Positions 2,262-45,411 of a DNA stretch of 64,000 nucleotides are shown one piece after another. The translations under genes and the position numbers were made by a program. This stretch comes from Clostridia bacterium (GTDB lineage Bacteria; Bacillota; Clostridia; TANB77; CAG-508). Within the stretch, counting starts at the first letter, position 1. Each line of letters opens with the position of its first letter. The DNA lies in contig JARHYK010000002.1 of NCBI GenBank assembly GCA_029258515.1, positions 167,216 to 231,215 of the forward strand, in the 5' to 3' direction. The notes under the pieces were generated by a model. It had not been told where the DNA came from, did not search any database, and was given only the letters and a program-made list of their open reading frames with translations.

Positions 2262-2800
2262 AATAATCCTCCTATGTATAATTTTTCTTAATATATCTTA
2301 TACTAAAAACTAAATTAATTCAAGTAATTTTAATAATAAATTTTTAAAAAATCTGAAAGGAAAATTATTAAAATGTAAATATATAGTAGAACAGTTAAAA
2401 ATAAGTTTTATAATAATGTTTTGATAGATTTAGATAATTTTTAAATATTATTTAAAATGAAATATTTATAGATGTATGATATGATAAAGATGGGATTTTT
2501 TCCACGTAAATGTGGAAAAAAAGATGTTGATATTTTAAAAATGAAAATATATAATTTATATAAAATAATTGTAATATATAGTATAGAAAGACAAAGGTAA
2601 ATACAAATGAATAAGGATTTTTTAGAAGTATATAAAAATAGGATTATAAATAATTTTAAATATGGGAAAATAGATAAAAAGATGTATAATAGTAGCAATA
2701 ATGAGCTATGCTAATTTTAGTGTGGTTTATTATTGGTATTTTTGATTTAATTGAACTTAATACATAAATAGTATAAATAAGAAATAGGAGAAATTTTAAG

Positions 2801-4354
2801 ATGGAAAAAATAAAAATAAAGAAAACAAATGGTATTACTTTAATTGCATTAGTAATTACAATAATAGTTTTATTAATCTTAGCAGGTGTAACAATAGCAA
2901 GTTTAAGTGGAGATAATGGAATACTTCAAAGAGCAAGTGAAGCAAAGAAAAAAACTAACAAAGAAGATGCAGAAGAATCAATAAAATTACTATTAACAGA
3001 AGTTCAAATGGAGAAAAATTTAGGAACAAAACCATTAAAAGATTTGTTAGAAGAAAAATTTGGACAAAGTAATGTAAAGCCAAATGGAGATGGATTTAAA
3101 GTAATAAAAGATGGTTATGAAGCAACAATTGATGCTAATGGTAATTTAGTAGGAGAAGTAGTAAAAGTAGGAACAGGGGGAGAAATACCAATACCACCAA
3201 CAACAGGTAAAACAGATGGGAGTTGGGATGCAACAAAAGGTGTAAATTCACCTAAATTAAAAGATAATATGAAATTAGTAACATACAGCAATGGAAATTG
3301 GGTAGAAGATACAACTAATTTAGCTTATAAATATGTTGCAGGAACAGGAAATGAAGACAATATTTCAAGTGAATGGGCAAATGCTGTTTTAGATGGAAAT
3401 TATTATGTATGGATACCGAGGTATGCGTATAAAATAGATAATAGTGTAACATATACAAGTCAAGCAGGTACAAGTCATAAAATAGATGTTAAATTTGTTG
3501 ACAATAGTGTAAAAGGAACAACAAGTGATGGGTATATAGTACATCCCGCATTTACATTTGGAACAGAAGAGCTAAGTGGAATATGGGTAGGAAAATATGA
3601 AACAAGTAGAAGTGATGCAACAGAAACTCAAGAAGGAACAGCTATAACAGTAAAAATACAACCAAATGTTAGAAGTTATAGAAATATAACTGTATCAACA
3701 ATGTTTGAAGCAGCTAAAAGTTTAAGTAAGCCAAATGTAGATGCTCATATGATGAAAAATACAGAATGGGGAGCAGTAGCATATTTGGCACAAAGTCCAT
3801 ATGGAAGAAATGGAACAGAAGTAAGTGTGAATCAATGTAGTGATTATATAACAGGAGCAGGAAAGACTAAAGGAATAAATAAAATTTATGAAAGTACAAC
3901 TTATTCACAAGCAGACATAGAACCAGAACAAAAATATGATGGAGCTATAGGTAAAATGTCAAGTACAACAGGAAATGTATATGGAGTATATGATATGTCG
4001 GGTGGAGCATTGGAGTATGTAATGGGGGTATATGGAACAGGAAATCCATTAAAACCATCAATTGGCAGTTCTTCAGGATTTGATATTAATAAATTCCCAG
4101 AAAGTAAGCATTATGATGTATATGAAAATAAAACAAATGATTATGGAAATTATGAAGGTGGTAAAGATGGTGATGCAACTAAGGAAATTCAAAATTGGAA
4201 TAATGATTTTGCTTACTTTGTGAATTCTGACCATCCGTTTTTCTTACGAGGAGGTAGATATAATAATTCTGGCAATTCAGGTTTGCTTTGCTTTACCTGG
4301 GGTAATGGTAATGCTTACGGTGATCTCGGTTTTCGTCTTTGCCTTGTGGTATAG
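2801..4354 (+). CDS. type IV prepilin-like N-terminus fused to an FGE-sulfatase/C-type-lectin-fold domain protein; candidate DGR target
   Basis: Short basic leader ending in G (MEKIKIKKTNG), then a hydrophobic helix ITLIALVITIIVLLILAGV. FGE-sulfatase domain motifs TEWGAVAY, GVYDMSGGALEYV and RGG...GFRLC are present. The C-terminal 35 codons are A-depleted and Asn/Ser/Gly/Tyr-rich. Confidence 0.75.
   Translation: MEKIKIKKTNGITLIALVITIIVLLILAGVTIASLSGDNGILQRASEAKKKTNKEDAEESIKLLLTEVQMEKNLGTKPLKDLLEEKFGQSNVKPNGDGFKVIKDGYEATIDANGNLVGEVVKVGTGGEIPIPPTTGKTDGSWDATKGVNSPKLKDNMKLVTYSNGNWVEDTTNLAYKYVAGTGNEDNISSEWANAVLDGNYYVWIPRYAYKIDNSVTYTSQAGTSHKIDVKFVDNSVKGTTSDGYIVHPAFTFGTEELSGIWVGKYETSRSDATETQEGTAITVKIQPNVRSYRNITVSTMFEAAKSLSKPNVDAHMMKNTEWGAVAYLAQSPYGRNGTEVSVNQCSDYITGAGKTKGINKIYESTTYSQADIEPEQKYDGAIGKMSSTTGNVYGVYDMSGGALEYVMGVYGTGNPLKPSIGSSSGFDINKFPESKHYDVYENKTNDYGNYEGGKDGDATKEIQNWNNDFAYFVNSDHPFFLRGGRYNNSGNSGLLCFTWGNGNAYGDLGFRLCLVV
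2828..4010 (+). repeat. dispersed repeat copy A (paralogous to 30761..31900; about 95% identical over the first ~780 nt, patchy thereafter)
   Basis: By-eye nucleotide alignment of the two pilin/FGE genes. Identity begins exactly at the codons for NGITLIAL. Confidence 0.8.
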
Positions 4355-4715: not shown

Positions 4716-4790
4716 AGGGGTATAGTGTCAATGGTAGCACATCGGTCTCCAAAACCGCCTGTGAGGGTTCGAATCCTTCTACCCCTGCCA
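4716..4790 (+). tRNA. tRNA-Trp (anticodon CCA)
   Basis: A cloverleaf can be folded by hand. Acceptor stem AGGGGTA/TACCCCT, anticodon loop CTCCAAA, T-loop TTCGAAT and a 3' CCA. Confidence 0.85.
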
Positions 4791-11028: not shown

Positions 11029-11820
11029 ATGGAGACATTTGCACAATATATATTAAATGAAAAAGCCTTGGGGTCTAAAATGGAAATAGTATATTATTTA
11101 GCTAAAAAGGAGAAAATATTTTTTGATAAATCTGTTATATTTAAAACAGAACTTTTAAGAATGTTTTTAAATAATTTGGAGTTAGGATTAGATAAAAATA
11201 TATTGTTAACTGCAAATTTATTAGCAAGTTGTAAAAAAATAGAAGTATCTGATGATTTAGAAAAAATTAAAGCTTTTTCAAAAGTAGGAGCAGAATATTT
11301 ATATAGTATAGGATTTGATGAGAAATTTTGTAAAATATGTGAAGGGATAAATAGATATACAAAGCAAGAAAAGAGGGAAAAAGAGAGCGATGTTTTAGAA
11401 TTAATTGATCAATTTGGTGGAATGATATTAGATAGACCAGAAAGAATAGGAATGAAGCCAGATGAAGCTTTAGTTATATTAGAACATAGAAATTTAAAAG
11501 GTCAATTTAATAGATATTTACAATCGTTTATTGATTTTATAAATGAGATAGAACAAATAACTATAAAACAAGATAGGGAAAGAACACCTATTGAATTATT
11601 GTTAAAACTATATAAAGAAACAGCTAATGAGAAAAGATATATTACAGCTGTTATTTACGAATATGAGCAGTTGGTTGATGAAGCTTTTTGTAAGGCAAGA
11701 GAGGGAAAAAATTGTGAAATTAGAAAAAATATGCTAGAATTAGAAAAAGGAAATCCAAATAGGTCATTATTTAGTGAAGAAACAACACAAAAAATAATAG
11801 GAAAATTGATAGAGAAGTAG
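11029..11820 (+). CDS. hypothetical protein
   Basis: 263 aa ORF tightly spaced before the EndoQ-like gene. No family recognised. Confidence 0.4.
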   Translation: METFAQYILNEKALGSKMEIVYYLAKKEKIFFDKSVIFKTELLRMFLNNLELGLDKNILLTANLLASCKKIEVSDDLEKIKAFSKVGAEYLYSIGFDEKFCKICEGINRYTKQEKREKESDVLELIDQFGGMILDRPERIGMKPDEALVILEHRNLKGQFNRYLQSFIDFINEIEQITIKQDRERTPIELLLKLYKETANEKRYITAVIYEYEQLVDEAFCKAREGKNCEIRKNMLELEKGNPNRSLFSEETTQKIIGKLIEK

Positions 11821-11837
11821 AGAAGGAAGGTAGATAA

Positions 11838-13025
11838 ATGTACGAAATATTTGCAGATTTACATGTTCACATTGGGAGGTCAGAAAGTGGTAAACCAATT
11901 AAAATAACTGCCGCTAGATCTTTGAATTTTGCGAATATAGCAAAGGAATGTGAAGCTAGAAAAGGAATACAAGTTGTAGGAGTTATTGATTGTGCGTCAC
12001 CATATGTAATAGAAGATATCGAAAAATTTTTAAGTAATGGCGATGCTTATGAGCTAAAAGATGGTGGAATAATATATAAAGATAAGGTTTGTATATTATT
12101 GGGAAGTGAAGTAGAAACATCAGAAAAAGGAAGAAATGGAAAGAGTGGTAGTGCTCACAATATTTGTTTTTTTCCGTATTTGGAAGATATAAAAGGTTTT
12201 TCAAAAGAGATGAGTACACATATAAAAAACATAACATTAAGTACTCAAAGGTCAAATGTTTCTGGATATGAATTAATAGATATAGTAGAAAAATATAATG
12301 GTATTTTGATTCCAGCACATGTTTTTACACCACATAAGAGTTATTATGGAAATTGTGTAGATAGTTTAAAAGAAATTTTCAGGGAAAAATATGATAAAGT
12401 ATTTGCAATAGAATTAGGATTAAGTTCAGATACTATGTTAGCAGATATGATATCAGAATTGGAAAATAAGACATTTTTGACAAATTCTGATGCTCATTCT
12501 CTTCCTAAAATTGCAAGAGAATATACTAAGATGTTAGTAGAAGATATATCATTTAAAGAAGTTGTAAAAGCTTTAAAAAATGAAGATGGAAGAAGAATTA
12601 TTGCTAATTATGGGTTAGATCCAAAACTTGGAAAATATCATAGGACATATTGTGATAATTGTGAAAAAACTATAGAAACTAAAGAACCAGTTAATAAATG
12701 TCCTTATTGTGGAAGTGAAAAGGTTACTTTTGGTGTTTTTGATAGGATAGAATTAATAAAAGATAAAAAAGAAAGTAAAAGTCCTAAAGATAGACCACAA
12801 TATATTTATCAAGTACCACTTGGATTTATTCCAGGTGTAGGAGGAAAAACTATTGAAAAATTATTAGATACTTTTGAAACCGAAATGAATATTTTACATA
12901 AGCTTTCAAAAGATGATATTGAAGCTGTGGTTGGAGAAAAAATTGCAAATAAGATTGATGAAGCAAGAAGAGGTAAATCAAAAGTTCATTCTGGTGGTGG
13001 AGGAAACTACGGAAAAATAGAATAG
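11838..13025 (+). CDS. PHP-domain protein, endonuclease Q-like (TIGR00375 family)
   Basis: N-terminal ADLHVHIGRS metal-binding motif of PHP domains. C-terminal zinc finger CDNCEK...CPYCG as in EndoQ. Confidence 0.5.
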   Translation: MYEIFADLHVHIGRSESGKPIKITAARSLNFANIAKECEARKGIQVVGVIDCASPYVIEDIEKFLSNGDAYELKDGGIIYKDKVCILLGSEVETSEKGRNGKSGSAHNICFFPYLEDIKGFSKEMSTHIKNITLSTQRSNVSGYELIDIVEKYNGILIPAHVFTPHKSYYGNCVDSLKEIFREKYDKVFAIELGLSSDTMLADMISELENKTFLTNSDAHSLPKIAREYTKMLVEDISFKEVVKALKNEDGRRIIANYGLDPKLGKYHRTYCDNCEKTIETKEPVNKCPYCGSEKVTFGVFDRIELIKDKKESKSPKDRPQYIYQVPLGFIPGVGGKTIEKLLDTFETEMNILHKLSKDDIEAVVGEKIANKIDEARRGKSKVHSGGGGNYGKIE

Positions 13026-30733: not shown

Positions 30734-32233
30734 GTGAAAAAATCTAAAGAAAGAAACACAAATGGTATTACTTTAATTGCATTAGTAATTACAATAATAG
30801 TTTTATTAATCTTAGCAGGTGTAACAATAGCAAGTTTAAGTGGAGAAAATGGGATACTTCAAAAAGCAAGTGAAGCAAAGGAAAAAACTAATAAAGAAGA
30901 TGCAGAAGAATCAATAAAATTACTAGTAACAGAAGTTCAAATGGAGAAAAATCTAGGAACAAAACCATTAAAAGATTTGTTAGAAGAAAAATTTGGACAA
31001 AGTAATGTAAAGCCAAATGGAGATGGATTTAAAGTAATAAAAGATGGTTATGAAGCAACAATTGATGCTAATGGCAATTTAGTAGGAGAAGTGGAAAAAG
31101 TAGGAACAGGGGGAGAAATACCAACAACTGGTAAAACAGATGGAAGTTGGGATGAAACAAAAGGTGTAAATGTACCTAAACTAAAAGATAATATGAAATT
31201 AGTAATATATAGTAATGGAAATTGGGTAGAAGATACAACAAATTCAGCTTATAAATATGTTGCAGGAACAGGGAATGAAGATAATAATTCAAGTGAATGG
31301 GCAAATGCTGTTTTAGATGGAAATTATTATGTATGGATACCAAGGTATGCGTATAAAATAGATAATAGTGTAACATATACAAGTCAGGCAGGTACGAGTC
31401 ATAAAATAGATGTTAAATTTGTTGACACTAGTGTAAAAGGAACAACAAGTGATGGGTATATAGTACATCCCGCATTTACATTTGGAACAGAAGAGCTAAG
31501 TGGAATATGGGTAGGAAAATACGAAACGTCAGGTGATATTGCAAAACCAACAATAAAACCTGATCAAGTAGCATTAACAGATATTAATGTTGCAACGATG
31601 TTTGGAACAGCTAAAAAATTAAGTAAAATAAATATAGATGCTCATATGATGAAAAATACAGAATGGGGAGCAGTAGCATATTTGACACAAAGTTCATATG
31701 GGAGAAATGGAACAGAAGTAAGTGTGAATCAGTGTAGTAATTATATAACAGGTGCAGGGAGAGGAATTGGTAATCCAATAGATAATCCAATTTATAATGG
31801 AATATATTCAAATCCAGAACTTAATCAAAAATATAATGGAGCAATAGGACGATTATCAAGTACAACAGGAAATGTATATGGGGTATATGATATGTCTGGA
31901 GGAACAGTTGAATATGTGATGGGAGTATATGGGACAGATAAAAATAATATAAGTTTTAGGTATTCTGGTTTTGATATCAATTCTTTTCCAAAAGAAGAAA
32001 AATATTATGATTTGTATACTAAAACAAGTACAGATATAACTAATATTGGTGATAGTTTGTTTGAAACATCTGGTTGGAATAATGATAATAAATCTTTTTT
32101 TAATCTCGACTTTCCTTTTTCTAGACGTGGTGGTCGTTATAATTCTTCTAGTGATGCCGGTATTTTTTATCATAATCCTTACAATGGTGCCAATGATAGT
32201 TCGTACGGTTTTCGAGTGTGTCTTTCAGTATGA
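30734..32233 (+). CDS. type IV prepilin-like N-terminus fused to an FGE-sulfatase/C-type-lectin-fold domain protein (paralog of 2801..4354); candidate DGR target
   Basis: GTG start with an AAGGAGG RBS. Leader MKKSKERNTNG followed by ITLIALVITIIVLLILAGV. The FGE motifs are conserved. The divergent C-terminal 36 codons are A-depleted and Asn/Ser/Tyr/Asp/Gly-rich. Confidence 0.75.
   Translation: MKKSKERNTNGITLIALVITIIVLLILAGVTIASLSGENGILQKASEAKEKTNKEDAEESIKLLVTEVQMEKNLGTKPLKDLLEEKFGQSNVKPNGDGFKVIKDGYEATIDANGNLVGEVEKVGTGGEIPTTGKTDGSWDETKGVNVPKLKDNMKLVIYSNGNWVEDTTNSAYKYVAGTGNEDNNSSEWANAVLDGNYYVWIPRYAYKIDNSVTYTSQAGTSHKIDVKFVDTSVKGTTSDGYIVHPAFTFGTEELSGIWVGKYETSGDIAKPTIKPDQVALTDINVATMFGTAKKLSKINIDAHMMKNTEWGAVAYLTQSSYGRNGTEVSVNQCSNYITGAGRGIGNPIDNPIYNGIYSNPELNQKYNGAIGRLSSTTGNVYGVYDMSGGTVEYVMGVYGTDKNNISFRYSGFDINSFPKEEKYYDLYTKTSTDITNIGDSLFETSGWNNDNKSFFNLDFPFSRRGGRYNSSSDAGIFYHNPYNGANDSSYGFRVCLSV
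30761..31900 (+). repeat. dispersed repeat copy B (paralogous to 2828..4010)
   Basis: By-eye alignment with copy A. Contains a 6-codon indel (PIPPTT vs PTT) and scattered substitutions. Confidence 0.8.
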
Positions 32234-39160: not shown

Positions 39161-39249
39161 TGGTGCAGATGGCCGGAATCGAACCGGCACGAGGTTTAAC
39201 CCTCGCAGGATTTTAAGTCCTGTGCGTCTACCTGTTCCGCCACATCTGC
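39161..39249 (-). tRNA. tRNA-Leu (anticodon TAA), long variable arm
   Basis: The reverse complement folds as a class II tRNA. Acceptor stem GCAGATG/CATCTGC, anticodon loop CTTAAAA, T-loop TTCGATT and CCA end. Confidence 0.85.
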
Positions 39250-41183: not shown

Positions 41184-42110
41184 ATGGGTAAGTATCAAAA
41201 TTTTTATGCCATAGAAACTTTGAATGATGTTGAAAAAAGAAATAAAAAAAATAAAATATTAATAATATTTTTGTTGCTTGTTATTTTTAGTATTTTGTTA
41301 TTTTTAATAGTAAATGTAAATAGCAATATTAAAAAGTTAAAGCAAGCTAAGGAATATGAAAAACAAGTATTAGAGTTTAAGGAAAAATATGAAAAAGAAG
41401 AATTAAGAAAAAAACAAGAAGAAGAACAAAAAAAACAAGCTAGATTACCTAGAATAACAGAACAGGGAAAAGAAAATTTCAGAACGATTTTTCATTCTGA
41501 TAAAAAACGAGCATTTTTAACATTTGATGATGGACCATCTACTGTAACACATAAAATATTAGATACATTGGATGAAAAAGGAGTAAAAGCAACATTTTTC
41601 ATATTGGGAGTAAATGCTGAGAAAAACAAAGAATTAGTAAATCAAATGTATGAAAAAGGGCACTATATTGCAAATCATGGTTATTCACATGTGTATTCAT
41701 CAATATATTCAAGCCCACAAGCAGTTTTAGATGAGTATAATAAAACAAATGATATAATAAAAGAAGCTATTAAACAACCAGAATTTAATTCATATTTATT
41801 TAGATTTCCAGGTGGATTTTATGGTGGAAAATATGCAAATATTAAAAAAGAAGCAAATGAAATGTTAAAGCAAAATGATATTTCTAATATTGATTGGAAT
41901 TGTTTAACTGGTGATTCTGAAACAAGTAGTCCTACGCCAGAATATGTTATAAAAAGATTAAAAGAAACGTCTAAAGGAAAAAATAGTTTAGTAGTATTGA
42001 TGCATGATGCACAAGCTAAAAAAGTTACAGCAGAGATGCTACCACAAATTATAGATTATCTAAGTAGTGAAGGATATGAATTTAAGACATTTTATGATAT
42101 ATTTATATGA
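41184..42110 (+). CDS. polysaccharide deacetylase (NodB-homology) with an N-terminal TM anchor and coiled coil
   Basis: NodB motifs FLTFDDGP and ANHGYSH. Confidence 0.75.
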   Translation: MGKYQNFYAIETLNDVEKRNKKNKILIIFLLLVIFSILLFLIVNVNSNIKKLKQAKEYEKQVLEFKEKYEKEELRKKQEEEQKKQARLPRITEQGKENFRTIFHSDKKRAFLTFDDGPSTVTHKILDTLDEKGVKATFFILGVNAEKNKELVNQMYEKGHYIANHGYSHVYSSIYSSPQAVLDEYNKTNDIIKEAIKQPEFNSYLFRFPGGFYGGKYANIKKEANEMLKQNDISNIDWNCLTGDSETSSPTPEYVIKRLKETSKGKNSLVVLMHDAQAKKVTAEMLPQIIDYLSSEGYEFKTFYDIFI

Positions 42111-44467
42111 GTTATAAAATAAAATGTTTTGATTTTTGTAATTTATTTTCAATAAAGAAAGGAGCAATAAAATTGCCTAGAAAGAAGAAGACAAATTTTG
42201 AACCAGAGATAGAAGAAAACTTAAAATACATAGGATTAGATTTAGAAAAGTTACCTCAAAATATTATTGATTTTGAACCATTAAAATTTAGGCCTACAAA
42301 AACATATGACGAGAAAAAATATATACAATATAGATTTGTATCTATTCAGGATATTCAAATATTAATTTCACCAACAAATAGGTTAGAAGAATTAGAAGAA
42401 AAATATAAAAAAGCAAGACCGTTAGTAGATTATATGGATAACAAAAAAGAAGATAATTTGTTGAGATTTACAGTGTTTTTGAATATGATCAAACAAATGG
42501 ATATTGCTGAAATAGAAAAAGTAGAAGAAGAACAAAAAAAACTTGCTCAAAAACTTCCTTTTAATGTTAAATATGAAGGTAATTATTTATGGCAAATTTA
42601 TTATTCAGAGATAAGTGATAAATATTTTATGCTTGTTCCTATGGAAGAAACAAATTATTCAGCGTTTTTCTATTTATTAAAGAAGAAAATTGAAAATAAT
42701 AAAAATGATAAGATATTTGTACCTGTTTGTAATATTGGATATTCAAGAGAATTTTTTACAAAGACAGAATATAAAGATATAGAAGATTATTTATGGTTAT
42801 TTACTAAAAATTGGACATCTATTTATGAGGTGTATGATGAAAATAATAAACTTTCAGTTAATATAGTTGGAGAAACTGCAATTTATAATAATATAAAAAG
42901 TAAATATAAAATAAATATAAATAATCAAAAAGAAGCAAATCATTTTTATAAACTTTTAAAGGCATTATTTATTTTGCAAACAGAATTACCAAATTATTAT
43001 AAGTTTGATACAAATGTAGATGAGAAGGGTAATTTGCAATTTTATTTTAGAGATACACAAATTGAATATTCTAAAATGGCATCATTTATTAAAGAAGAAT
43101 TTTCTCAAGGAGAGATTTTAGAAATAGACATCTTAAAGAAAATAGAAAATGCTGATAAGAGATTAGAAGAATTAAAGCAAATAGCCTCTATGCAAGAAAT
43201 TGAATATAGAGATAAAGAAAAGCAAATATCAACTTTTTTAGAGTGTAAGAAAACATTTTTTGGGAAAGTTAAGTATTATTTTAAAATTAGTAAAAAAAAT
43301 AAAAAGAAGAAAAATCAAGAAGAGTTTGAAGAAAAAACAGTACAAGAGGATAGTTGTGAATTTTATAATGAAGAGAATGTACCTAAAGCTTTGAATTCAA
43401 AAAATCACACAATAGAAGAGCTAATAGAAAAATATAAAAATATTGATAATCAAGAGAATTTGTTAAAAAACATGGTTATGGATATAAATGCAATTAAATT
43501 AAAAAATAAAAATATGGCTAAAAAGATTGAAAATGCAACACTTTTTATAGAAGAAATTGATAATCATAAAAGAAGTATTTTTGAATTTTGGAAATATAGT
43601 AATAAAGATGCTATTAGTGTATTACCAGAAGGAGAAGAAGAAGAAATAGGAGTTGTTAAGAAAAAAATCGAAAAAGCTTTTGATTTTGAAGAAGATTTTG
43701 AAAAGTTTGGAATAAAATTAGATAATTTGCAAAGAGAAAAATTATCAATAGATGAAACAGATAGTATATATATTGCAACAACTAATATGTTAGATCTTTT
43801 GAATAAAATTCTTCTAAATGAAGTTGGACCTAAAGATGTTGAAAATGAATTAAAAAATTTAAAAAAAGAGTTGAAAGAAAAACAAGTGATTGAAACAGAT
43901 GAAGAATTTGATATCTTTGGAAGTTTAATTGAAGATAGTAGGAAGATAAAGAAAATAGGAAATAAGATACATAGAGAAATATCAAAAGACAAGTTTGATA
44001 TTCTTGAAATTACAAAAATGACTAGACAAATAGGGTTTAAGCTATCTTTGGAACAAGTTATTAAAAATATTAAAAATTCATTGGATAAGGTAAAATCTCC
44101 AGATGATTTAACTATCTATAAAGCAATTGTAGATGATAAGTTAGATGAAAATAAGATTAATGTTTTTGATATTAATTCTGAAAATGAAATGAAAAAAGCG
44201 TGCAAAAAAGAAGGAAATATGATTAATTTATATAAGATTAATTTAAAACGAGGTGAAAATATTTTAGGTTTTACAAATATAATTTATTATGATAATCAAA
44301 ATGATACTTTGCCTGCTGGAATGGATTTATCTACAAATGTTATAGTAGATATTTCAAAAATTGATTTGAATATTAAAAAGAAGAAAACTTTCCAAATTGC
44401 ATGTTTAGAAGATGAAAAAGATGAATTTTCTGATGTGATAGTTAAAAAAGTAACTGTTTATGAATAA
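42107..44467 (+). CDS. large hypothetical protein (786 aa, Lys/Glu-rich, coiled-coil-like), translationally coupled to the deacetylase
   Basis: ATGA start/stop overlap with the upstream gene. No signal peptide. No recognisable domain. Confidence 0.5.
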   Translation: MSYKIKCFDFCNLFSIKKGAIKLPRKKKTNFEPEIEENLKYIGLDLEKLPQNIIDFEPLKFRPTKTYDEKKYIQYRFVSIQDIQILISPTNRLEELEEKYKKARPLVDYMDNKKEDNLLRFTVFLNMIKQMDIAEIEKVEEEQKKLAQKLPFNVKYEGNYLWQIYYSEISDKYFMLVPMEETNYSAFFYLLKKKIENNKNDKIFVPVCNIGYSREFFTKTEYKDIEDYLWLFTKNWTSIYEVYDENNKLSVNIVGETAIYNNIKSKYKININNQKEANHFYKLLKALFILQTELPNYYKFDTNVDEKGNLQFYFRDTQIEYSKMASFIKEEFSQGEILEIDILKKIENADKRLEELKQIASMQEIEYRDKEKQISTFLECKKTFFGKVKYYFKISKKNKKKKNQEEFEEKTVQEDSCEFYNEENVPKALNSKNHTIEELIEKYKNIDNQENLLKNMVMDINAIKLKNKNMAKKIENATLFIEEIDNHKRSIFEFWKYSNKDAISVLPEGEEEEIGVVKKKIEKAFDFEEDFEKFGIKLDNLQREKLSIDETDSIYIATTNMLDLLNKILLNEVGPKDVENELKNLKKELKEKQVIETDEEFDIFGSLIEDSRKIKKIGNKIHREISKDKFDILEITKMTRQIGFKLSLEQVIKNIKNSLDKVKSPDDLTIYKAIVDDKLDENKINVFDINSENEMKKACKKEGNMINLYKINLKRGENILGFTNIIYYDNQNDTLPAGMDLSTNVIVDISKIDLNIKKKKTFQIACLEDEKDEFSDVIVKKVTVYE

Positions 44468-45051: not shown

Positions 45052-45411
45052 TGGTGGAGATGAGGAGAGTCGAACTCCTGTCCATAACACATTCCATATA
45101 AATTTCTACAAGTTTAGTTTATTATTTATCCTTTTTTTTATATCTTCAACAAACAGAATATATAAAACGAAAGCTCTTTTAAATACCTACTATATTAAGA
45201 GCAAATATAGTTTTGTTTCCTACATAAATGACACTTTAGCCTAAAGCGTAGGGACTTATAGGTAAAGCGTAGCTACAACTTAGGCAGCTAGTGCAAATTC
45301 TCTATTATTATCTGCATTTATATTTAAATTTCCCGTTTTTTAAAGTGGCCAACGAGAATCCACTACTTGCTATTTATACTTCTTGTGTAATGTCGAAACC
45401 ATTACATCCCC
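45052..45411 (-). ncRNA. ssrA: tmRNA (SsrA)
   Basis: 5' GGGGATGTAATGGTTTCGAC pairs with the 3' tRNA-like end GGACAGGAGTTCGACTCTCCTCATCTCCACCA. An internal tag reading frame GCA GAT AAT AAT AGA GAA TTT GCA CTA GCT GCC TAA (ADNNREFALAA) lies at 45315..45280. Confidence 0.8.

Follow-up and report, generated by a model that had tools for sequence, protein, structure and literature searches.

The gene g1 (2801..4354 on the + strand, like all features of g1 and g2 given below; ATG start) probably encodes a modular type IV pilin carrying a DGR-type lectin-fold module, that is, a putative pilus adhesin whose binding end is fixed in the window, by which we mean the whole 64 kb stretch of DNA analyzed. 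Homology indicates that this 517-aa reading frame is no chance ORF, because the full-length query matched 7894 proteins at E ≤ 1e-3 in a word-indexed search, none of them carrying a name. A Shine-Dalgarno-like AGGAG (2786..2790) was found by inspection 10 nt 5′ of the ATG, and a G+C of 25% is that of the 64 kb window. g1 is a solitary gene: its 5′ neighbors, on the opposite strand, encode a GH57 branching enzyme and a DUF4912 protein, and on its 3′ side lie a tRNA-Trp gene (4716-4790) and then the glycyl-tRNA synthetase gene. An exact-protein look-up aimed at an orthologue from another strain returned no record for g1. Look-ups with the flanking genes led to Logan contigs of SRR14857245, one of which ends ~50 nt into g1, where the repeat formed by g1 and its paralogue g2 probably broke the assembly; a second ends within the glycyl-tRNA synthetase gene. 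The look-up at the far end of the window gave housekeeping genes only. We also considered a phage origin of g1 and g2 and rejected it, because both sit among housekeeping genes and the sole PHROG match is to a function-unknown family (E 6e-7).

The family to which g1 belongs is large. An exhaustive search with residues 140-517 gave 3622 clusters at 50% identity; E ≤ 1e-30 was reached by 779, and the 3622 include giant proteins with up to nine matched stretches. Scanning one genome per species, we confirmed at least 597 stretches. The 80 loci that we kept for comparison (designated by L numbers) are all from uncultured MAGs, nearly all of them labeled Clostridia, Clostridium, or Bacilli, and many bear gut-derived isolate names. 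Several family copies per genome are often present, with up to four or five in tandem. Our family alignment comprises 62 sequences.

The N-terminus of g1 is very probably a type IV pilin class III signal followed by alpha1N, in a lineage-specific variant that lacks Glu5. The first-pass annotation had quoted a prepilin leader, MEKIKIKKTNG, and a hydrophobic stretch, ITLIALVITIIVLLILAGVTIA, and we found both in g1 exactly as given. The leader (residues 1-11; 2801..2833) is short and basic and ends in a Gly, the predicted prepilin-peptidase site G|I, which is present in 59 of the 62 relatives; the same junction occurs in the pilin of a pilus operon described below (L076). After this terminal Gly come ~20 hydrophobic residues, as in class III signals. 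The alpha1N hydrophobic helix with a conserved SGxNGIL turn (residues 12-42; 2834..2926) is delimited by conservation in the alignment and by the AlphaFold2 (AF2) model, which has a helix at residues 12-36, interrupted at 37-40. A small globular pilin-like module is predicted at residues 43-122 (2927..3166), where the long helix continues (41-73) and is followed by a short helix and then four beta-strands. Conservation peaks at residues 11-42, with a mean majority-residue frequency of 0.90, the highest of the protein; all other segments range from 0.40 to 0.85 (0.40 for the leader, 0.41 for the globular part of the pilin module, and 0.80-0.85 for the best motifs of the lectin fold). Such conservation is more in keeping with an assembly interface than with a signal peptide destined for removal.

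Profile searches were less clear. The check with PF07963 proposed for the prepilin N-terminus did not succeed on g1 itself (11.4 bits, where the cut-off is 21.2), NCBIfam and Pfam scans of g1 gave nothing significant, and Foldseek with only the N-terminal 135 residues returned no pilin and no significant match. Among the relatives, 42 of 62 match PF07963 at E ≤ 0.1, the best at 5.4e-4. The absence of the usual Glu at mature position +5, which had been noted at the outset, is real: Ala takes its place in g1, in g2, and in 59 of the 62 aligned relatives.

The same N-terminus heads pilins encoded in pilus operons. In L076, a g1 homologue lies directly 3′ of a complete type IV pilus operon. We annotated there a pilM/N fusion and pilO (from operon position and phmmer; the PilN Pfam match, at E 0.0075 only, is below the cut-off), a 140-aa pilin beginning MRKQNGITLISLVITIIVLLILAGVSIAMLTGENGILTQA (L076:3267-3689; PF07963 21.4 bits, above the cut-off), a prepilin peptidase (A24_N_bact 5e-30), two minor pilin-like genes (from operon position), pilB (T2SSE 5e-102), pilT (T2SSE 1.4e-45), and pilC (T2SSF 2e-23). 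The 140-aa pilin, whose gene lies between pilM/N/O and the genes for the prepilin peptidase, pilB, pilT, and pilC, shares the N-terminus of g1 (NGITLISLVITIIVLLILAGVSIAMLTGENGILTQA), so that the sequence GITLI[A/S]LVITIIVLLILAGV also heads a pilin within a pilM/N/O-pilD-pilB-pilT-pilC operon of related uncultured gut Clostridia. In L037, the 10 kb around a g1 homologue include a pilD homologue, pilM/N and pilO, and the gene of a pilin that begins with the same N-terminus; L014 has a pilM/N homologue, and L021 encodes an A24-type peptidase. Across the related loci, the N-terminal motif is present in 76 ORFs. Those inspected read GITLI[A/S]LV in loci labeled Clostridia or Clostridium and GFTLIELL in loci labeled Bacilli, with the same lectin-fold module on both; family members from Bacilli MAGs thus keep the Glu in its canonical setting, and the L033 protein, with a canonical QGFTLIELL, scores 29.8 bits with PF07963, above the cut-off.

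Were the N-terminus to act merely as a signal anchor, or as a Sec signal removed by signal peptidase I, g1 would be a surface lectin, tethered to the membrane or released, with no place in a pilus. The location of g1 outside a pilus operon, the lack of Glu5 together with the sub-threshold PF07963 score, and a conceivable signal peptidase I site (T-I-A|S) after the helix would agree with this. It nonetheless appears quite improbable to us, since the G|ITLIAL junction and the helix are near-invariant in proteins that are otherwise ~45% identical, an identical segment is found on operon-encoded pilin-sized proteins beside PilD, PilB, and PilC, and Bacilli MAG members carry the textbook GFTLIELL. 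Moreover, at 22 residues the hydrophobic run is longer than usual for substrates of signal peptidase I. Apart from the T-I-A|S site, several observations tell against the pilin assignment that we prefer: g1 falls below both Pfam thresholds; Ala stands in place of Glu5; Foldseek with the N-terminal module alone retrieved no pilin; both copies sit among housekeeping genes, with none of PilB, PilC, PilD, PilM, PilN, PilO, PilT, or a small pilin found within the 64 kb window when it was searched with E. coli and same-lineage queries; and many copies per genome are unusual for minor pilins.

The pilin-sized proteins encoded in operons of the g1 lineage have Ser or Ala at the position of Glu5. On these comparisons, Ala at +5 is a lineage-wide trait, common to the operon-encoded pilin-sized proteins, and not peculiar to g1. 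The salt bridge between Glu5 and the N-terminus is thought to drive subunit docking, and Clostridia MAGs with Ala or Ser in place of Glu5, operon pilins included, are suited to testing the part that this residue has been proposed to play in filament assembly. The capping subunit of the tip complex lacks Glu5 (reviewed in PMC10191384), as do tip minor pilins of the GspK and PilX-PilK types; in the lineage of g1, however, operon-encoded pilin-sized proteins also lack it, and its absence is therefore no marker of tip position here.

The remainder of the protein, joined by a low-confidence linker (residues 123-150, GTGGEIPIPPTTGKTDGS...; 3167..3250; pLDDT below 50 at residues 125-133), is an FGE-type C-type-lectin-fold (CLec) module (residues ~151-517; 3251..4351) with the family motifs EWANA, VWIPRYAYKI, HPAF, HMMKNTEWGAVAY, and STTGNVYGVYDMSGG. 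The lectin-domain motifs quoted by the first-pass annotation are likewise in place: NTEWGAVAY (320-328), GVYDMSGGALEYVMG (395-409), and RGG...GFRLC (484-513). The AF2 model, computed from the alignment, has a mean pLDDT of 81 and a pTM of 0.71; means over ten-residue blocks are mostly 84-97 over residues 140-350 and low beyond about residue 445. It consists of two modules with the linker between them, as in modular pilins. The sole significant family in a Foldseek search against the PDB was TaqVP, the variable protein of a Thermus aquaticus DGR (5vf4; three chains, E 4.1e-7 to 5.2e-7), which was also the top sequence-profile match (E 0.0026); a phmmer search of PDB sequences with g1 was negative. 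The structure model thus bears out the proposed CLec fold. The profile named for it, PF03781, did not match g1 at E ≤ 1, and matched 48 of the 62 relatives at E ≤ 0.1 (best 2.4e-5). The architecture first proposed, a pilin N-terminus with an FGE-type lectin fold, therefore stands on context and structure, while the HMM test suggested for it fails on g1.

We also asked whether g1 could be a membrane-anchored enzyme of the FGE family, formylglycine-generating or sulfoxide-synthase-like. No invariant or nearly invariant Cys was found across the 62 sequences, and the catalytic cysteine pair of the enzymes is absent; the stretch that houses these cysteines in FGE corresponds to the C-terminal segment that is least conserved in the g1 family. 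For both reasons an enzymatic role of the C-terminal module is unlikely, and we regard such an enzyme as extremely improbable.

The match to a DGR variable protein is mirrored in the loci of the relatives. We compared each of 83 loci with itself, looking for repeats mismatched at the adenines of one copy, and detected pairs of variable region (VR) and template repeat (TR) with adenine-biased mismatches in 5 of ~80 related loci (L012, L018, L020, L033, and L071). Each VR lies exactly at the 3′ end of the homologue, with the second copy 150-300 nt downstream. All mismatches fall at TR adenines in L018 (17/17), L033 (15/15), and L071 (26/26), and most do in L012 (25/31) and L020 (27/32); nearly all VR/TR mismatches are within AAY codons. 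Full-length reverse transcriptase (RT) and Avd homologues were found near the homologue in L071, L033, L020, and L055, three of which also have a VR/TR pair. In L071, a 365-aa RT (with YMDD and IGNYTSQ; Pfam RVT_1, 1e-16) and an Avd (bAvd, 6.5e-21) adjoin the TR. An Avd and an RT fragment are present at the locus edge in L005, and L015 has RT fragments only, which suggests that its element has decayed. All five variable proteins with VR/TR pairs carry the pilin N-terminus. The VR/TR pairs together with the RT/Avd loci identify, at the level of sequence, DGR-diversified modular type IV pilins within the g1 family. We also tried the L018 TR as a template for the copies in the same MAG (L023 and L026) and discarded it, as merely ~65% of mismatches fell at adenines. 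The first-pass annotation had recognized a lectin-fold module correctly; it had missed that this module belongs to the DGR variable-protein type, with homologues that are DGR targets.

The paralogue g2 (30734..32233; 499 aa) is 74% identical to g1 at the amino acid level and is flanked by an ABC transporter/GntR pair on one side and a 3-hydroxyacyl-CoA dehydrogenase gene on the other. The two proteins are almost the same throughout the pilin module and the beginning of the lectin module, beyond which they have diverged. For most of the first ~280 codons, nucleotide identity is 93-98%; it is 54-90% in the remainder. Synonymous differences among codons for identical residues number 20 of 251 in the first part and 31 of 132 in the remainder. 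Because synonymous divergence is higher in the 3′ half, the pattern suggests that the genes are mosaics in which the pilin half has undergone recombination or conversion, and not solely that the binding half has evolved fast at the protein level.

The segment of g1 that matches the DGR variable region of the relatives is residues 479-517 (PFFLRGGRYNNSGNSGLLCFTWGNGNAYGDLGFRLCLVV; 4235..4351), as seen in the alignment with the VR/TR of L018, L020, L033, and L071; it has low pLDDT. Both g1 and g2 align with the VRs of these four loci over the C-terminal CLec scaffold PFF.RGG.Y....G....GFR. The window contains no template repeat of the 3′ end of either gene, and the adenine-bias screen of the window came out empty. 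Likewise, no RT or Avd homologue was found in the 64 kb by phmmer with the L071 proteins, nor any ORF with a YxDD motif. Most simply, g1 and g2 would be two fixed copies, possibly descended from DGR targets.

An alternative would have both genes as active trans targets of a DGR beyond the window, with their C-terminal ~40 residues hypermutated in the population. Remote target genes of DGRs are documented (Wu et al. 2018, PMC5758913), homologues of g1 are DGR targets by sequence, and GC-rich, VR-like 3′ ends occur in many relatives that have no local TR. g1 and g2 also retain much of the VR scaffold, and several of the AAY codons in relatives' TRs correspond to Asn in these proteins. We consider this unlikely, however, given that the window has no TR-like repeat, RT, or Avd and that the 3′ ends of g1 and g2 share only 54-56% of their nucleotides, so that one TR cannot template both. 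The G+C of their last 150 nt (0.39 in g1 and 0.34 in g2) is well below the 0.49-0.60 of VRs for which a TR was detected; values of about 0.31-0.36 are seen at the 3′ ends of several homologues that showed no local TR. In addition, SGLL in g1 deviates from the AGVF of the scaffold, and an RT beside a homologue can decay, as L015 illustrates.

Under the reading that we favor, in which g1 is a modular pilin with a fixed binding end, the preprotein would enter the membrane through its 22-residue hydrophobic helix, and a prepilin peptidase of the PilD type, whose gene would lie elsewhere in the genome, would cut after Gly11 (G11|I12). After extraction from the membrane, the subunit would assemble through the near-invariant alpha1N (12-42) as interface, with a PilB/PilC/PilM-N-O machine adding it to a type IV pilus made of a small pilin with the same alpha1N. 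The ~380-residue module would hang by the flexible linker from the small pilin module. By analogy with PilB and PilC of Streptococcus sanguinis, a bulky module on a linker leads us to expect that g1 sits at the tip of the filament or is a rare subunit displayed sparsely along the fiber, and the interpretation as a tip or pseudopilus adhesin, already put forward for this gene, is a reasonable one. The FGE-type CLec without conserved Cys is the non-enzymatic ligand-binding scaffold of DGR variable proteins, its C-terminal ~40 residues forming the surface at which the ligand would be bound. In the relatives, a DGR (TR, RT, and Avd) rewrites exactly this segment; here, two copies with nearly the same pilin module and different binding ends would provide two fixed alternative adhesin specificities. 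The family suggests a way in which these bacteria may adjust their attachment to glycans, host surfaces, or partner cells, and its natural pairs of DGR-linked and DGR-free members would allow the fate of a hypervariable adhesin to be studied once the retroelement is lost.

Our searches of the literature found no description of a type IV pilin grafted with a DGR-type lectin fold and with relatives under adenine mutagenesis; no account of a DGR diversifying a type IV pilin came up, nor any relevant paper on the N-terminal motif of g1 or on a type IV pilin with an FGE-sulfatase domain. We take IPR005532 to be the SUMF/FGE domain; IPR012902 is the prepilin N_methyl signature. The combination IPR012902-IPR005532 is listed with 8 proteins among 264 modular-pilin architectures, none of them studied (Raynaud et al. 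2021, Dataset S1, PMC8179133). The earlier view that this is not a described pilin class thus holds only in part: the architecture has been catalogued, with its 8 proteins left uncharacterized. Proteins such as g1 would escape a catalogue compiled from domains, since they fall below threshold with the Pfam models behind it. In the survey of DGRs by Wu et al. (2018, PMC5758913), FGE-type CLec targets (the 'category b' FGE-sulfatase) account for 19% of DGRs, and pilins are unmentioned; a 2024 survey has a 'GspG-type pilin' domain among rare VR-holding proteins.

Among known DGR variable proteins, TvpA is a lipoprotein and TaqVP is not known to have a pilin module. Compared with TaqVP (5vf4), to which it is just 22% identical, and with TvpA (2y3c), g1 has an added type IV pilin module and linker, and there is no DGR within 64 kb. 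The closest parallel on the pilus side is provided by the modular pilins PilB (vWA) and PilC (lectin) of S. sanguinis, for which a location at the pilus tip has been proposed (Raynaud et al. 2021, PMC8179133; Shahin et al. 2023, PMC9934059). Like g1, they come from a monoderm and join a bulky binding module to a small pilin module through a short linker. g1 differs from them in that its graft is an FGE-type, DGR-type CLec, in having Ala for Glu at +5, and in that the genes of its family are scattered, multi-copy, and outside the pil operon.

The same logic as in L018, L020, L033, and L071 is seen in the DGR-diversified type V tip adhesins of gut Bacteroides, where a pilus-borne C-type-lectin fold has its surface rewritten by a DGR (bioRxiv 10.1101/2024.11.15.621889). 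The pili themselves are unrelated: type V pili, of Bacteroidota, are built from lipoprotein precursors by strand exchange, whereas g1 belongs with type IV pili (prepilin peptidase, alpha1N helix, and PilB ATPase) of Clostridia and Bacilli. A broader proposal, that uncultured low-GC gut Clostridia and Bacilli build type IV pili whose bulky subunits bear a DGR-type lectin-fold binding surface, rewritten by mutagenic retrohoming in some genomes and kept as several fixed, recombining cassettes in others, strikes us as rather unlikely; in its boldest form, g1 and g2 would be trans targets and the pilus would work without the Glu5 salt bridge. If true, it would supply the type IV-pilus counterpart of the Bacteroides type V tip adhesins. 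g1 itself unites two known kinds of protein, the modular type IV pilin and the DGR-type lectin-fold variable protein.

The window carries a second copy of the modular pilin-like gene g1, here called g2 (window 30734-32233, + strand), which begins with a GTG start and encodes a protein of 499 aa with 74% amino acid identity to g1. Nucleotide identity between the two is 93-98% across most of the first ~280 codons and 54-90% in the remainder, where synonymous divergence is also higher. This uneven, mosaic pattern suggests recombination or gene conversion between the copies. A Logan contig assembled from another sample (L086; SRR14857245_8280), whose strain is identical or very close to this one, ends ~50 nt into g1, and this break point coincides roughly with the onset of g1/g2 near-identity. 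The paralogue repeat is therefore a probable cause of breaks in short-read assemblies, and MAGs may contain too few members of the family. Elsewhere in the window we found genes for tRNA-Trp(cca) (4716-4790, + strand, ~360 nt downstream of g1), tRNA-Leu(taa) (39161-39249, - strand) and tmRNA (45052-45411, - strand; tag ADNNREFALAA). A 786-aa ORF lies downstream of a polysaccharide deacetylase gene (42107-44467, + strand), and no Pfam match at E<=1e-3 was found for it.

Glu5 is also absent from pilin-sized proteins encoded inside type IV pilus operons of two Clostridia MAG loci (L076:3267-3689 and L037:10368-10985), which have Ser or Ala at +5; it is kept in the Bacilli MAG homologues that were inspected. 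Since these operon-encoded proteins lack Glu5, the lineage may assemble pili without the salt bridge between Glu5 and the N-terminus.

The same pilin N-terminus opens every gene of tandem arrays of 2-5 genes at four related loci (four genes in L026, five in L036, and the arrays of L054 and L016), and the lectin-fold module is present in some, not all, of these genes. At a further locus, L081, the gene that follows the homologue (11650-12759) shows no more than a faint precomputed match to Glug. The relatives extend to giant proteins of 1889-4516 aa (P0129-P0133), in which this lectin-fold domain is matched by as many as 9 stretches; the N-terminus of one of them (P0130, 4340 aa) is also pilin-like, KGLSLLVLIITIIIMIVLA.

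At L015, only short fragments of the reverse transcriptase of a diversity-generating retroelement (DGR) are found (2990-3381), just 3' of a homologue (776-2440), in what looks like a decayed DGR beside its former target. In the DGR-linked homologue of L012, the variable region (3869-4030) and its TR differ by a 1-nt indel that puts the variable region out of frame; the gene is either a pseudogene or wrongly assembled at this point.

Finally, residues 213-330 of g1 (window 2801-4351) weakly match phrog_2889, a phage protein family of unknown function (E 6e-7); by this similarity, phage proteins too contain a related N-terminal part of the lectin fold.
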